NCBI GenBank assembly: GCA_964565125.1
Contig: CAZMCX010000012.1
Coordinates: 1 to 13,398 of the forward strand
Direction of reading: 5' to 3'
From: an uncultured archaeon
GTDB taxonomy: Archaea; Iainarchaeota; Iainarchaeia; Iainarchaeales; 0-14-0-20-30-16
DNA length: 13,398 nucleotides
The notes under the pieces are model-generated. The model had not been told where the DNA came from. It was given only the letters and a program-made list of their open reading frames with translations, and ran no database searches. This document shows, piece after piece, positions 1 through 6,506 of the stretch. A program made the translations under genes and the position numbers. Each line of letters starts with the position of its first letter. Position 1 is the stretch's first letter.

Positions 1-25
1 CCGGAGTTCGAATCTCCGTCGGACT
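1..25 (+). tRNA. 3'-terminal fragment of a tRNA gene cut by the window edge (isotype not determinable)
   Basis: CGGAG-TTCGAAT-CTCCG (2-18) is a perfect 5-bp T-stem with a canonical 7-nt T-loop. It is followed by a 7-nt 3' acceptor strand TCGGACT (19-25), with A26 as discriminator and no encoded CCA. The 5' part lies outside the window. Confidence 0.6.
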
Positions 26-211
26 ATTTAATGGGCTTTAGGCCCATTATGTCCATAGGACATTCCTCTTTTGCGCCACTGCTTTTTTCAAAAGCGGTGT
101 TCGGATCTCCGTCGGACTATTTAATGGGCTTTAGGCCCATTATGTCCATAGGACATTCCTCTTTTGCGCCACTGCTTTTTTCAAAAGCGGTGTTCGAATC
201 TCCGTCGGACT
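26..211 (+). repeat. Two tandem 93-bp units (26-118, 119-211), each ending in a 25-nt copy of the tRNA 3' end
   Basis: The units are identical at 92 of 93 positions (G104 vs A197). Copies of the tRNA 3' end lie at 1-25, 94-118 and 187-211. Each unit has three paper hairpins: TAATGGGC/GCCCATTA (29-49), ATGTCC-ATA-GGACAT (49-63) and CACTGCTTTT-TTC-AAAAGCGGTG (77-99, 10 bp with one G-U). Confidence 0.9.
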
Positions 212-262
212 GTCCTTTTTCTATCAATAGATATAAAAAACTATTAATTCAATAATTAGTTT

Positions 263-3100
263 ATGAATAAAACTGCAACTGTTATTTTATGTATAATTCT
301 ACTTCTTGTATTATCTGGGATAATAACTGGAATATACTTCCTTGTAATTAATGAAAAAACAAAGGACCAAGGATACATTTTTAACTTTAATGACGGAACT
401 TTTACAAAAAAAATCACTTCCGATGAAGTTACAGCTGAACTCATGAAATTAGATAAAGCCCAAGACTATTTTCTAGTTGTTTTCACCCCAAAAGACTCAA
501 AACTAATAACAAATAATGCAACTCTGACTTTAGAAAAAGGAATATATCTGATAGCAACAAATGATGCTTTTGAAATAAAACTAGAATATAATTCAAAAAG
601 TTGTGGATTATATTTCCCTGTAAAAATATCACATTACAATGATTTTTCTGAGGACGAAAAAGCAGAATTAATTAGCAGTATAAAAGCACAATATTATCCA
701 GAACTAGATTGTGATTTAGTTAATATTTTTGAAAAAAGCATTATGACAGAACTAAATAATGCAATTGCAAAAGGAGAACTAAAAACCGTAAAAAAGATAA
801 ACATTGTTTATTTTGAAGAAAAAAAATCTGTTTGGGATAAATATTACAAAAAGGCAATAAACTATGCAAAAGAAGAAATTGAAAAAGAAAAAGTAAAAAA
901 ACAGTATAGTAATATTAAGCTATCAATAACAATGGCTGTAGATAAAACAAAAATAGACCCAAGAATAGAAGAGTTTAAAATAAAGATAATATCAAACAAA
1001 CCTCTTTTTGAAGACGACTACAAATTAGAAGCAGAGGATATTGCTACTGCACAAAGATATCCAATAAAAACAGAGCAGACAGTAACTCAAGGCAGCAGCT
1101 TTATTGCAAATGTGATTTGGGATGGCAGTATAACTAAATTGTCCGGCCAAAAATACAAAAATGCAAACTTTAGTTTAAAAGTAATGGACAGTAAGTCAAA
1201 GAACGTACTTGCAAATCAAACAATAACCACCGAAATAGGAGAACTCTATTCAGAAGCATACAATTATGATGACTTAGAATCTGCAATTCCTACAGAAAAA
1301 TATTCTATATTAGAATTATTTAACCACGAATCAAAAAAAGTTCCACTTATTTTTAAAGATAAACAATTAGACACACCACAAATTTCAGCAAGTAATCCGA
1401 GCATAACAGTAACCTTAAAACCAACATATCAGATATGTTCTGACTGTTTAGAAATTTACAACCCAACTAGTATCGAACAAAACGTTGTAGACTTGTTAGA
1501 TAAATTATATTTCTTAGATAACATTGATAACCTATTTTTAATAGAGCAAGGCGTTTTTGAGAAAAGCCTTAACCAAAAACAAATTTCCACATTAAAGACT
1601 TTAATTGATAAAAAAATAATTTATTTAGGCCAGCCATATATTGCAACTATAACACCAGAGTTTATAGAAAACACAGAATTAATAAATGAGTCCAAACTGG
1701 TTGGTAACTTTTTTGAGAAAAAAGAAATAATAATAAACACCCTACTTATTAGCGATAAGTTAGGATTACGAGAAGCAATTACAAAAATACAAAGTTTTGC
1801 AAACACAGGCCAAAAATTTCAAGTTCTTGCAGAAATAGCAGACAAAATACGTGCAGAAAAACAATCTTCTGGATCCACAACCAATTCTTTAGGGATGGCT
1901 TATGATATTACTGCCAGCGATTATATTTATGCTTTAAAGAATCACAAAATAAGCTGTATTTCAGGAGGCATAATAATTGCAAGAACAATAGATTATATTC
2001 TAAAAAAATCAGGAGAACAAAATTATTCTGTGTCCTTAGTAGATGTAGAAGGGGCCGGAGAATTTTGGGAGGGGGCATACAAAGGCGCACACATAATAAC
2101 AAAAGTTGTTCTAAATCACGTAATACAATACTTTGACGCAACAAATACAACTAACCTTAGCCATCTACTAATTATAACCCCTACGAATAAAAAATATCAA
2201 CTAAAGGCAAATGACTCTGCAAGCACAATATACAGAACAAGCACAGAACATAGTATAGAAGATGCAGAAACTCTGTCAAAAACACAGCACAAAGTAATAA
2301 ATGGCCAAGCATTAACAACCCAAGAAATAAAAAATATCCCTATTGACTTTTTGCCTATTATTCTTTCACTTTATAGCCAATCAAATCAAAATCCGCAAGT
2401 TTATTCAATATTACAAAGCAGAGGAATCACAACAACAGCAAACTTAAAACAAATGCAAAATATTTATACACAATTAAAGTTGAATTCAGCTATTTTAACA
2501 TATTCTCATAATACAAAGTCAGAAATACCAAGCTCATTTGCTATAAATCAGCACAACATTTATCTAAACCTATACAAACAAGATCCAGACCTATATAATA
2601 ATATCAATCTTCTTGGGCTTTTGACCCCAAACATCATTGCATATAATAAAATAAAATTAGAAAAAAATATTGATTCAGACAGGATTTGGTTTACAGTATT
2701 AAAAACAATTACTCAATTCCCAATAAACACCACAATAATAACTGAAAAGCAATTATCAGATGCACACAAAATTATTTTCTCCTTTCCTTTCTGTATAGGA
2801 ATTTGTGATCCGGAAAAACAAGAAATAAATCAATATTCATATTTATCGCTTGGGTTTGCAGCACTAAGATACCGGATGTATTATTTAAATAAAAACAATG
2901 CTACTGAAGCTAATTCCTTAAAAACAATAATTACAGAGGCAGTAGATTATATTGATTCAAAACTAAATCCCAACTTTAAACAAAAATTTGAAAATCCAGT
3001 TATAATGTATCCACCTGGGGCAGATGACAAAACAAAGGAAATTGCAAAAACGGGCGAACAGGTGGGTATATATGCATCAGAAGTAAATAAAACTGTTTAA
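263..3100 (+). CDS. Large membrane-anchored (N-terminal signal-anchor) protein with a putative transglutaminase-like/papain-like cysteine protease core; otherwise unknown function
   Basis: Uninterrupted 945-aa ORF with ATG start and a TATA-like GATATAAAAAA about 28 nt upstream. There is one hydrophobic helix at aa 6-29 (TVILCIILLLVLSGIITGIYFLVI). The motif string HKIS-C565-ISGG...(45 aa)...GA-H610-IITKVVL...YF-D625-ATN resembles the Cys/His/Asp spacing and context of transglutaminase-core proteins (G-x-C ... H-a-W-x-E-V ... F-D-P-T). The rest is Lys/Asn/Ile-rich with no motif I recognise. Confidence 0.8.
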   Translation: MNKTATVILCIILLLVLSGIITGIYFLVINEKTKDQGYIFNFNDGTFTKKITSDEVTAELMKLDKAQDYFLVVFTPKDSKLITNNATLTLEKGIYLIATNDAFEIKLEYNSKSCGLYFPVKISHYNDFSEDEKAELISSIKAQYYPELDCDLVNIFEKSIMTELNNAIAKGELKTVKKINIVYFEEKKSVWDKYYKKAINYAKEEIEKEKVKKQYSNIKLSITMAVDKTKIDPRIEEFKIKIISNKPLFEDDYKLEAEDIATAQRYPIKTEQTVTQGSSFIANVIWDGSITKLSGQKYKNANFSLKVMDSKSKNVLANQTITTEIGELYSEAYNYDDLESAIPTEKYSILELFNHESKKVPLIFKDKQLDTPQISASNPSITVTLKPTYQICSDCLEIYNPTSIEQNVVDLLDKLYFLDNIDNLFLIEQGVFEKSLNQKQISTLKTLIDKKIIYLGQPYIATITPEFIENTELINESKLVGNFFEKKEIIINTLLISDKLGLREAITKIQSFANTGQKFQVLAEIADKIRAEKQSSGSTTNSLGMAYDITASDYIYALKNHKISCISGGIIIARTIDYILKKSGEQNYSVSLVDVEGAGEFWEGAYKGAHIITKVVLNHVIQYFDATNTTNLSHLLIITPTNKKYQLKANDSASTIYRTSTEHSIEDAETLSKTQHKVINGQALTTQEIKNIPIDFLPIILSLYSQSNQNPQVYSILQSRGITTTANLKQMQNIYTQLKLNSAILTYSHNTKSEIPSSFAINQHNIYLNLYKQDPDLYNNINLLGLLTPNIIAYNKIKLEKNIDSDRIWFTVLKTITQFPINTTIITEKQLSDAHKIIFSFPFCIGICDPEKQEINQYSYLSLGFAALRYRMYYLNKNNATEANSLKTIITEAVDYIDSKLNPNFKQKFENPVIMYPPGADDKTKEIAKTGEQVGIYASEVNKTV

Positions 3101-3589
3101 TCACTTTAATTTCATTATTAATTCTCTCTGGTTTTCTAAGATCTTTTTCATCAAATCCAAAGTTACATTTGTTTTTGCACCTAAATCTGCCAAAGACCTT
3201 TTTATTATAGCAATATCGTCATGTGCCGCGTCTATTTTATCTAAAGAAATAGAATCTAATTTATCATAAGTTTTCGTCATGTTTTCATTTAAGGCTTTCA
3301 TATGTTCCTTATGTTCATCAAGTGTTTTTGTTGCATTATCTACAACATTCATTGCCATAGAACTTGCTAACTCTGCATGATGTGCATAGTTTTTTGTGTT
3401 CTCTTCTATAACCATATTATCAGATTCTTTTTTTTCTTCTTGAGGTTTTTCCACCTTATTTTGTCCACCCACTGCTGAAGAAACGTCTTTTTCACTATAT
3501 CCTAAAGATATCAACATCTTAACAACTTCTTCTTTAGATATCCCTGAATCAAGCATCTTCTTTGCGTTTTCAACTAATACAGCATCCAT
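3101..3589 (-). CDS. Hypothetical protein: N-terminal UBA-like three-helix module plus C-terminal coiled-coil region
   Basis: The ORF track starts at a GTG (3598); I prefer the ATG 3 codons in (3589, MDAVLVEN...). The N-terminus ENAKKMLDSGISKEEVVKMLISLGYSEKDVSSAV has the G-x-S-x-E-E...G-x-S-x-x-D pattern of UBA/TS-N-like domains. An acidic/lysine linker follows, then heptad-like helical sequence. There is no TM segment. Its stop codon abuts the stop of the 945-aa gene. Confidence 0.65.
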   Translation of the reverse strand: MDAVLVENAKKMLDSGISKEEVVKMLISLGYSEKDVSSAVGGQNKVEKPQEEKKESDNMVIEENTKNYAHHAELASSMAMNVVDNATKTLDEHKEHMKALNENMTKTYDKLDSISLDKIDAAHDDIAIIKRSLADLGAKTNVTLDLMKKILENQRELIMKLK

Positions 3590-5726: not shown

Positions 5727-6205
5727 AACTTTTTTATCATTGGCTGATATTTCTGACTGCCAAATCTTTTTCCTGTTCTGACACCTGTTACTTTTTTATA
5801 GCCATATCTTTGATAAAATGGAACTGCATACAAAGACGACCTTATTTTTACTTGTTTACTACCTAACTTCAATACTCTTTTTTCAAACTCACAATATAAT
5901 CTGCCTCCAATCCCTTTTCTATGGTATTCCCCAATAACATATAAATTAACTAATCTGTTTTCTTTGCCTCTTAAAACACCCACAATTTTGTTATTATCTT
6001 CTGCAACCAACATAATAGGAGAGCTTAAAAATGCCACATTTAAAGATTCTCCATTTACTTTATAATTATAATAAGATAAGTAATGTTCAACAGAGTCTTT
6101 TGTGCCTTCTAATGACTGGAATTGTTTAAATACGCAGCAGATTAGTTCACAAACCTGCCCCAAATCTTCTTTTTGGTATTTTCGAATTTTTATCACAGTA
6201 ATCAC
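5723..6205 (-). CDS. GNAT-family N-acetyltransferase
   Basis: It carries the acetyl-CoA binding motif A: LYVIGEYHRKGIGGRLYCEFEKRV (R/Q-x-x-G-x-G/A), followed by FYQRYGYKK. Size is 160 aa with an apparent GTG start at 6205. Its stop overlaps the rnhB stop (TTAA at 5723-5726). Confidence 0.85.
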   Translation of the reverse strand: MITVIKIRKYQKEDLGQVCELICCVFKQFQSLEGTKDSVEHYLSYYNYKVNGESLNVAFLSSPIMLVAEDNNKIVGVLRGKENRLVNLYVIGEYHRKGIGGRLYCEFEKRVLKLGSKQVKIRSSLYAVPFYQRYGYKKVTGVRTGKRFGSQKYQPMIKKF

Positions 6206-6314
6206 TAATATAAAAATAGATTAGTAGGTTTTTTAAAAATAGGTTCAACAAAAATAAAAAGAAGAGGTGTGTAAACAAATACAAAATGGAAAGTTTGTAA
6301 AGGTTTCAGACTAG

Positions 6315-6445
6315 CCACCCAGTTTTATTTTAATAGACCGTAATTTTTCTTTCTTTCTTTTGTGAACTTAAGGACCTTTAGGGCCCACCTTTCTTTCTTT
6401 TAATAGACTGTAATTTTTCTTTCTTTTGGAAAGAAAGAAAAAGTT
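6315..6445. repeat. Two degenerate ~70-bp direct repeats; core TTTAATAGAC(C/T)GTAATTTTTCTTTCTTT at 6328-6361 and 6398-6426
   Basis: Both copies are preceded by CCACC (6315, 6386). The cores differ by one C/T substitution and a 4-nt CTTT indel. Polypyrimidine CTTT motifs are iterated. The region is non-coding, lying between divergent genes. Confidence 0.7.
6414..6442 (-). terminator. Perfect 13-bp hairpin (TTTTTCTTTCTTT-TGG-AAAGAAAGAAAAA), a candidate terminator directly downstream of the C/D sRNA
   Basis: The arms are exact reverse complements, read directly. On the minus strand the T-rich arm CTTTTTCTTTCTTT begins about 4 nt after the predicted sRNA 3' end, which is consistent with archaeal oligo-T termination. 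Confidence 0.45.
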
Positions 6446-6446
6446 A

Positions 6447-6506
6447 GAACTCAGCCCGCCAATCAATCATCATACATTCAGCAGGGGTTAACATCATCAT
6501 CGTCCC
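6447..6506 (-). ncRNA. C/D box sRNA (2'-O-methylation guide) with complete C, D', C', D boxes
   Basis: The minus strand reads GGGACG-ATGATGA(C, 6500-6494)-TGTTAACCCCTG(12 nt)-CTGA(D', 6481-6478)-ATGT-ATGATGA(C', 6473-6467)-TTGATTGGCGGG(12 nt)-CTGA(D, 6454-6451)-GTTC. Both C boxes match RUGAUGA perfectly and both D boxes are CUGA. Both guide spacers are exactly 12 nt, the canonical archaeal architecture. Total length is about 60 nt. Confidence 0.85.

Follow-up and report, generated by a model that had tools for sequence, protein, structure and literature searches.

The stretch analysed here (the window) is the first 13,398 nt of contig CAZMCX010000012.1 (C12) of assembly GCA_964565125.1, from an uncultured archaeon (the genome under study, G000; 838 kb in 131 contigs, 31% G+C). 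It opens within an intact tRNA-Gln(UUG) gene; behind the end of this gene lie two tandem inserts of 93 bp that are gene-less and quasi-palindromic. The unit belongs to a family: tRNA-linked repeats are found at several tRNAs of this Iainarchaeota-like DPANN genus. Genes in the window for RtcB, RNase HII, a diphthamide-synthase fusion and a Taw1-type radical SAM enzyme mark the DNA as archaeal. ARAGORN finds no tRNA within the window itself, but a complete tRNA-Gln(UUG) is located on another contig of the assembly, at the end of C18 (ARAGORN; Rfam tRNA, 62.9 bits). The last 55 nt of that contig (11208–11262) are an exact overlap with window positions 1–55, and C18 supplies the 5' part of the tRNA; the tRNA at the window start is therefore real. 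A preliminary description, made from the window alone, had recognized a genuine T-arm and 3' acceptor strand there, and had given the T-stem pairing correctly as CGGAG/CTCCG, although its positions were off by one base: the 5' strand is at 2–6, the T-loop at 7–13 and CTCCG at 14–18. The features of the locus, all on the forward strand, are as follows; hp1 to hp3 denote the three hairpins of a unit.

1–26, forward: 3' end of tRNA-Gln(UUG), with variable-loop C48, T-arm (2–18), acceptor 3' strand (19–25) and discriminator A26 (ARAGORN and Rfam on C18; 55-nt overlap).
27–119, forward: unit 1 of the 93-bp tRNA-linked repeat (Tandem Repeats Finder; fold).
29–49, second copy 122–142, forward: hp1, an 8-bp hairpin, TAATGGGC/GCCCATTA, loop TTTAG, stems 29–36/42–49 (folds).
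48–65, second copy 141–158, forward: diverged inverted copy of tRNA positions 57–73, TATGTCCATAGGACATTC (by eye; duplex test; folds).
66–76, second copy 159–169, forward: T-tract spacer CTCTTTTGCGC, the 'box' of a terminator-like module (sequence; other units and tRNA leaders share the layout).
77–99, second copy 170–192, forward: hp3, a 10-bp hairpin, CACTGCTTTT/AAAAGCGGTG, loop TTC, stems 77–86/90–99 (folds).
100–119, forward: direct copy of tRNA positions 54–73, TTCGGATCTCCGTCGGACTA, with one change, A58G (sequence).
120–212, forward: unit 2, differing from unit 1 at 197 (A against G104) and 212 (G against A119) (Tandem Repeats Finder; sequence).
193–212, forward: second direct copy of tRNA positions 54–73, TTCGAATCTCCGTCGGACTG, with one change, A73G (sequence).
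213–262, forward: AT-rich spacer outside the repeat, reaching to the start codon (263) of the gene for a 945-aa membrane-anchored protein (sequence).

Tandem Repeats Finder reports positions 2–211 as a repeat of period 93, with 2.3 copies, 97% matches and no indels, and the 14-mer ATCTCCGTCGGACT occurs three times in the window (12–25, 105–118, 198–211) where shuffled sequences lead to an expectation of 0. Framed as 26–118 against 119–211, the two units are identical at 92 of 93 positions, as previously noted, the single mismatch being G104 against A197. The first unit begins one base after the discriminator A26 and on the same strand as the tRNA. With A for the tRNA end and A' for its inverted copy, the order of the array is A - hp1 - A' - hp3 - A - hp1 - A' - hp3 - A. 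What each unit re-copies is indeed the tRNA end, but over 20 nt, from T-loop to discriminator and abutting hp3, rather than over the 25 nt first proposed.

The whole unit folds better than its shuffled versions (z = -4.6; 0 of 200 shuffles equally good), and the three hairpins expected per unit are recovered at 29–36/42–49 (hp1), 49–54/58–63 (hp2) and 77–86/90–99 (hp3). The inverted copy at 48–65 matches the reverse complement of tRNA positions 57–73 at 13 of 17 positions plus one inserted base (by eye). In the folds it either forms the local hairpin hp2 or pairs with the downstream tRNA-end copy, and in the duplex test each tRNA-end copy is likewise able to pair with the diverged inverted copy inside the unit. 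The internal copies read CGGTG (95–99, 188–192) and T98 pairs with A78 within the 10-bp hairpin; their apparent T-stem 5' strand is the 3' arm of hp3, which bears out the earlier view that these copies suit some other fold than that of a T-arm. The reading frame is open through both units (a 74-aa ATG open reading frame, 31–255, forward strand), 93 bp being equal to 31 codons. A coding reading of this frame has no support as a gene, and its openness is a by-product of the 93-bp period.

The window begins at a contig end, and contigs C18, C12 and C50 all break within these repeats. This is what would be seen if the second unit, or the entire repeat, were a mis-join of strain variants, and a similar-looking 'repeat' at tRNA-Gln(CUG) on C16 is in fact an assembly feature. 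That locus (3021–3290), considered as a second tRNA-Gln with a repeat, proved to be a 100-N scaffolding gap between overlapping contig ends with no repeat; 29 such gaps occur in the G000 assembly. For the array itself an artefact is very improbable. The junction of hp3, tRNA fragment and hp1 (about 90–144) is assembled, and as it is possible only with two or more units, at least two must be present. Each of the three tRNA-end copies carries its own variant, giving an ordered path, and a better-assembled congener (G002) has the same architecture at seven tRNAs, inside contigs.

Two congeners, G001 and G002, allow the tRNA-Gln site to be compared; they and G000 are 76–85% complete, and all relatives used are incomplete metagenome-assembled genomes except one closed genome (G021). 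In G001 an identical tRNA-Gln is directly followed by a T-rich trailer hairpin of generic type and then by a gene of the HIT family, with no unit, and so represents an empty site. The gene upstream of the tRNA is orthologous in G000 and G001 (64% amino-acid identity). In G002 the same tRNA-Gln is followed by a 72-nt unit, a 20-nt tRNA-end copy with two changes, a trailer of the same kind and the HIT gene; this unit has the same three hairpins as that of G000, in a different sequence. The number of units at tRNA-Gln is thus 0 in G001, 1 in G002 and 2 in G000. The layout is always fragment-unit-fragment, and the 70-nt interior is missing from the empty site, which excludes a plain tandem duplication of resident sequence. 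Set against the empty orthologous site, this layout requires either that foreign sequence was inserted and the tRNA end duplicated in the process, or that such an event was exactly reversed. In a Xer-like recombinase, the one protein on which the species tree rests, G000 shares 87.5% identity with G001 and 75% with G002, which places it nearer to G001; on such a tree the unit would either have been cleanly lost in G001 or gained separately in G000 and G002. Searching 60 relatives with the whole unit as query recovers the unit only in G002 and hp3 only in a further genome, G006.

Units of this kind are not confined to tRNA-Gln. In G002, 7 of the 30 tRNAs examined have inserts ending in their own tRNA 3' end (Arg-TCT, Arg-CCT, Arg-TCG, Ser-CGA, Ser-GGA, Ser-GCT and Gln-TTG); two different units lie in series behind Arg-TCT, and the tandem behind Arg-CCT is interrupted by an assembly gap. 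G001 has one such insert among 32 tRNAs examined. G000 has at least three loci: Gln, Ile-GAT (a 140-nt insert) and the end of contig C50, where an orphan fragment of tRNA-Arg(TCT) type is found. By a rough estimate, chance would place a tRNA-end copy within 400 nt about 0.015 times per tRNA. Inserts in the family measure 65–150 nt, and the tRNA-end copies mostly start at T54 ± 2 and are 12–22 nt long, with a 58-nt copy at Ser-GGA of G002, whose duplication extends to part of the trailer. The fragment behind tRNA-Ser(GCT) of G002 carries the T-loop of tRNA-Ser(GGA) and not its own. A genome search places the whole G000-type unit in G000 only at tRNA-Gln.

Contig C50 ends inside a unit (5856–5906), with an hp3 identical to that of the tRNA-Gln units, then the tRNA-Arg(TCT)-type end TTCGGGTCCCACCGAGGTCG and a generic trailer; the tRNA-Arg(TCT) gene is missing from the assembly, probably because the repeat broke the contig. 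Among the 33 tRNAs of the closed genome G021, which belongs to another family, there are only one or two doubtful tRNA-end copies, along with other structured trailers, so that units bearing a tRNA fragment are not general in the order. G021 has its own unrelated multi-hairpin repeat behind many tRNAs (TCGGCTGAAAAGTCAGCCGGCACCTTGTACGTGTCCC...).

Conservation and covariation in relatives had been proposed as a check, and for hp1 both are found. Across ten family members 69 of 70 stem pairs form, with 2–4 pair types per position, and none of 5000 partner shuffles reaches 69/70; the hairpins were picked by eye, which somewhat inflates the covariation, while the pairs were counted by script. A covariance model of the whole unit was dropped, as three MAFFT alignments lost the hairpin register. 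Pairing between the inverted and direct copies follows the target in part of the family. For the compact units (Gln twice, Arg-TCT, Arg-TCG, Ser-GGA), the best or near-best partner of the segment that follows hp1 is the unit's own fragment, in duplexes of 8–10 bp plus 3–6 bp. Over ten units the cognate duplex beats permuted pairings (permutation p = 0.002, cognate against non-cognate fragments), although five looser units show no such preference. The tRNA-Gln fragment of G002 has two substitutions, A58G and a C-to-G change in the T-stem strand; as read from the fold, each replaces a mismatch with the inverted copy by a pair. Rfam searches of the loci L002–L005 (E ≤ 1) and of the window (gathering score) return only tRNA.

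The hairpin hp3 with its flanks (67–101) forms a cassette that occurs elsewhere. A stretch of 36 nt (hp3 plus TTCGG) is identical between the Gln units and the Arg-type unit at the end of C50, and exact matches of 34–35 nt to the cassette occur at three loci of G065, a genome of a different family. Copies of the 35-nt cassette number 3 in G000, 13 in G065 and 2 in G006. Several G065 copies lie in frame in the lysine- and glutamate-rich tails of proteins, twice in the ribosomal stalk protein P0. At the loci L026 (1344–2627, reverse strand) and L022 (1328–1654) the cassette TTTTGCGCCACTGCTTTTnnnAAAAGCGGTG adds peptides of the type 'TAFEKSSGAK'. The loop bases of these in-frame copies vary (encoding E, R, K, G or W) and the stems are constant, as expected of an inserted hairpin rather than of a selected peptide.

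Related modules are widespread around stable-RNA genes. Most tRNAs of the genus have a leader module consisting of a hairpin, a T-run box and a second hairpin, and a trailer that is its mirror image, with a hairpin, the box CTAAGTTTGCCAAAAG and a hairpin with an ATAAA loop. One leader, for example, reads GGGTTATCGAG..CGAAGATGGACCC, then AATTTTGGCAAACTTA and the hairpin GCCTTTATTAAAAGGC, and ends 2–4 nt before tRNA position 1. These modules were read from examples in G000 (C7 16848–16990, C8 8561–8640, C10 14108–14447), G001 (L061–L090) and G002 (L031–L060). Both ends of the 268-nt intron of tRNA-Trp consist of the same leader and trailer modules, and the T-tract and hp3, which make up the right half of the unit, are likewise such a module. 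The modules look like terminators or insulators for stable-RNA genes; candidate roles are terminator or insulator, processing helix, or old palindromic element. A decayed duplicate of the gene's own leader-tRNA-trailer cassette was considered as the source of the units. This fits Ser(GGA/GCT) of G002, and is ruled out for Gln and Arg-TCG: with no leader module at either tRNA, the units there do not derive by decay from the gene's own cassette.

The window also holds a C/D box small RNA of classic archaeal form (6447–6505, reverse strand), in which one 12-nt guide separates C box ATGATGA from D' box CTGA and another separates C' box ATGATGA from D box CTGA; Rfam gives no match to it at the gathering score. 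It is followed by two modules of a T-rich hairpin and a 'TTACAGTCTATTAAAAG' trailer (about 6310–6445), of the kind found behind tRNA genes. A second family of hairpin inserts in G000, 40–60 nt long, is bracketed by exact direct repeats of 13–36 nt. Its core is CAAGAAAGC-TTTTTGC..GCAAAAA-GCTTTCAGGNCC, with an additional CAAGTTTGAATTTATGC type, and its sites include C13 11512, C11 7464, C9 12084, C19 7197, C21 8677, C30 7376 and C85 1751, among others. The direct repeats sometimes include a Shine-Dalgarno sequence plus ATG, and copies are also present inside tRNA trailers.

The compensatory changes in the hairpins, between G000 and G002 as well as across the family, raise the question of whether the unit is a structured trailer kept by selection whatever its origin, as a terminator or 3'-processing module or as a trailer-derived small RNA; the tRNA-end copy would then act as a second tRNA-like processing site, or keep the antisense segment off the tRNA. 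The two substitutions in the G002 fragment that create pairs with the inverted copy point the same way, as do the T-tracts after hp2 and inside hp3, which lie where an archaeal terminator is expected, and the hairpin and T-tract modules that flank most tRNAs, the tRNA-Trp intron ends and the C/D box small RNA. The units may also be old, if the tree is ((G000,G001),G002), and the comparable repeats of E. coli are transcribed and processed (PMC8144298). Selection for such a trailer nevertheless seems unlikely, if a serious contender. The unit is dispensable, since G001 has the same tRNA without it; its copy number ranges from 0 to 2; it has no Rfam match; and templated correction of DNA palindromes could yield the same 'compensatory' changes. 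Moreover, runs of T5–T7 lie upstream of the fragment, and, from what is known of archaeal termination at T-runs, transcription from the tRNA promoter would seldom reach through the whole inverted-plus-direct helix. With T-runs both before and inside hp3, we lean towards an explanation at the DNA level.

One such explanation, put forward in the preliminary description, is that the copies are stacked scars of attachment (att) sites: a virus or plasmid encoding an integrase would have integrated repeatedly at the 3' end of tRNA-Gln and been deleted down to remnants of about 70 nt between attL- and attR-type copies. Direct repeats of the 3' part of a tRNA around foreign DNA are the classic footprint of integration, in archaea included (PMC9897764). 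G58 in three fragments adjacent to hp3 (copy 2 of tRNA-Gln in G000, tRNA-Gln in G002, and C50 in G000) resembles a crossover edge brought in by an element, and the Ser(GCT) fragment of G002 with its Ser(GGA) T-loop looks as if the copy had travelled with the insert. Several findings make the proposal improbable. No integrase (PF00589) is found on C12 or C18. One Xer-like tyrosine recombinase is present in each of G000, G001 and G002, with extra integrases in G000 and G001, but G002, the genome with the most units, has only this universal Xer-like gene. Random deletion would not leave the same order of hp1, inverted copy, T-tract and hp3, with covarying hairpins, at many tRNAs. The repeats measure 12–22 nt against about 44 bp in the known archaeal cases, and the inserts 65–150 nt against elements of kilobase size (PMC9897764).

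Three further candidates were rejected. Integration at tRNA ends by a casposon or CRISPR-like system finds no PF01867 match in G000–G002 (76–85% complete). An origin as an intron, split tRNA or bulge-helix-bulge element does not fit, the tRNA being complete without the copies, the copies carrying A58G or A73G, and the helices showing internal loops that are not of the 3-4-3 form. The idea that RNase P is absent and that leaders and trailers are cut by the splicing endonuclease fails on the presence of RNase P RNA in G001 and G002, by which tRNA 5' processing is ordinary.

The reading we favour, to which we give about an even chance, is that a small insertion-derived module has duplicated the tRNA end and that its copy number was then altered by recombination between the copies. 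Short hairpin-rich DNA would have inserted directly behind the tRNA gene, duplicating the T-loop-to-discriminator segment; because that segment is duplicated, the tRNA would stay intact. Unequal or deleting recombination between the 20-bp copies would then change the number of units and give the 0, 1 and 2 of the congeners, and hairpin cassettes would be swapped between units, again through recombination. Insertion is favoured by the filled and empty sites, by the occurrence of the family at several tRNAs, by the shared cassette, by the 13–36 nt direct repeats around the other hairpin inserts and by the lack of leader modules at tRNA-Gln and tRNA-Arg(TCG). We infer that the module entered in this way and was not built in place, with no inserting enzyme found, and that in the tRNA trailer or terminator it plays a passive part at most.

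A number of observations weigh against this favoured reading. Units at different tRNAs are alike only roughly (about 70–85% by eye), hp3 excepted. The duplicated segment can be as short as 12 nt or as long as 58 nt, where a transposase would duplicate a target of fixed length, and a freely hopping element could not carry a target-specific inverted copy in its interior. The units at Gln and Arg-TCG may be ancestral and lost in G001, judging by identities of the one Xer-like protein, in which case the preserved hairpins would point to selection for structure rather than to recent movement. As for enzymes, the Xer-like gene is the only tyrosine recombinase of the unit-rich G002, a Y1 transposase occurs, among G000–G002, only in G000, and neither Cas1 (PF01867) nor a reverse transcriptase is found in these three genomes at their 76–85% completeness; an explanation by any of these enzymes (integrase, Y1 transposase, Cas1 or reverse transcriptase) was set aside, as their occurrence shows no pattern that matches the abundance of units. 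Finally, the copy number at tRNA-Gln in G000 is given as 'at least two', the array sitting at a contig end.

The absence of a mobility enzyme also suits a local origin with no mobile DNA, in which replication or break repair, meeting the near-palindromic T-arm and the hairpins behind tRNA genes, would be led into fold-back priming and template switching. Inverted and direct tRNA-end copies would thereby be laid down around trailer hairpins already present, and tandem copies would follow by unequal recombination. As read from the sequence, the array has dyad symmetry about hp1 and hp3, TTCGAA in the T-loop is itself palindromic with the inverted copy stopping at its centre, and hairpins of the hp1/hp2 type stand without a tRNA fragment behind Met in G000 and Ile-TAT in G002. 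This origin is nonetheless rather doubtful, as several coordinated switches would have to recur at about ten tRNAs with the same order of modules, and the empty tRNA-Gln site of G001 has no starting hp1 or hp3. In addition, transfer between loci is needed in any case, given a 36-nt cassette shared without change by two unrelated tRNAs and matches of 35 nt in another family.

Among known systems, partial tRNA copies in archaea are normally ascribed to integrated elements of 9–23 kb with repeats of about 44 bp (PMC9897764). PYG1, at tRNA-Gln of Pyrococcus yayanosii, is similar in that a complete tRNA and a direct partial 3' copy bracket foreign DNA, and tandem arrays are possible (PMC9897764). 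The units described here differ from such elements in being 65–150 nt long and gene-less, with repeats of 12–22 nt (58 once) and no matching integrase. MITEs (miniature transposable elements with inverted repeats) and palindromic elements (Correia/NEMIS, REP/REPIN, the PATEs of IS200/IS605, and those of Rickettsia) resemble the units in being small, gene-less, hairpin-forming, multicopy and sometimes co-transcribed, and the Rickettsia elements have a parallel in the hp3 cassettes in frame inside G065 protein genes. In contrast to MITEs, however, the units have no terminal inverted repeats matching a transposase, their ends (hp1 and hp3) being unrelated and the hairpins internal only. Their duplication varies from 12 to 58 nt, the full unit is strictly tied to tRNA ends, and the interior is target-specific.

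In attP(+) of CTX phage and attC of integrons, inverted and direct copies of the target fold into a hairpin that mimics duplex DNA, recombinases of the host or acting in trans are used, and tandem arrays form. By analogy, the inverted copy, hp3 and direct copy of a unit could, when single-stranded, form a hairpin mimicking the duplex 3' end of the tRNA gene, that is, a folded attachment site. This is a speculative and distinctly unlikely variant: the resemblance is purely architectural, each tRNA would need its own arms, and we know of no recombinase here that recognizes tRNA gene ends. If it were true, gene-less DNA of about 90 nt would integrate behind tRNA genes by means of a host enzyme, forming the smallest known integrative elements, and both the tandem arrays and the absence of genes would be explained. 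A 2026 survey of archaeal transposable elements, in whose main text tRNA does not appear, describes nothing like the tRNA-linked units (PMC13343696).

The closest of the known systems are the tRNA-linked repeats of E. coli (rtT of the tyrT operon; rrA/rrB/rrF). There are 22 of these at ten loci, 1–5 per locus, directly downstream of tRNA or rRNA genes, and their last 18–19 bp are identical to the 3' end of the gene upstream (PMC8144298). They share with the archaeal units their place next to a stable-RNA gene, the occurrence of several units, the copy of the gene end and the lack of a protein, and their origin and function likewise stand without explanation (PMC8144298). The analogy with E. 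coli tyrT/rtT drawn in the preliminary description thus holds by architecture, there being two units that each end in 19 of the 20 nt of tRNA positions 54–73. With no rtT match in Rfam at E ≤ 1, the archaeal repeat is an analogue and not a homologue. The E. coli repeats have been known since 1978, and those of tyrT have units of 178 bp, longer than the archaeal ones. The archaeal copies, for their part, end at the discriminator because no CCA is encoded, and the units carry an inverted tRNA-end copy and T-tract hairpins typical of archaeal terminators. In practical terms, such units break metagenome assemblies at tRNA genes, and their partial tRNA copies can be miscalled by annotation pipelines. 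The existence of a second, unrelated and much smaller version of tRNA-linked repeats in archaea with minimal genomes suggests that this layout is a recurrent product of a general process at the ends of tRNA genes, for the study of which the filled and empty sites, the covarying hairpins and the inverted-plus-direct copy offer a compact system.

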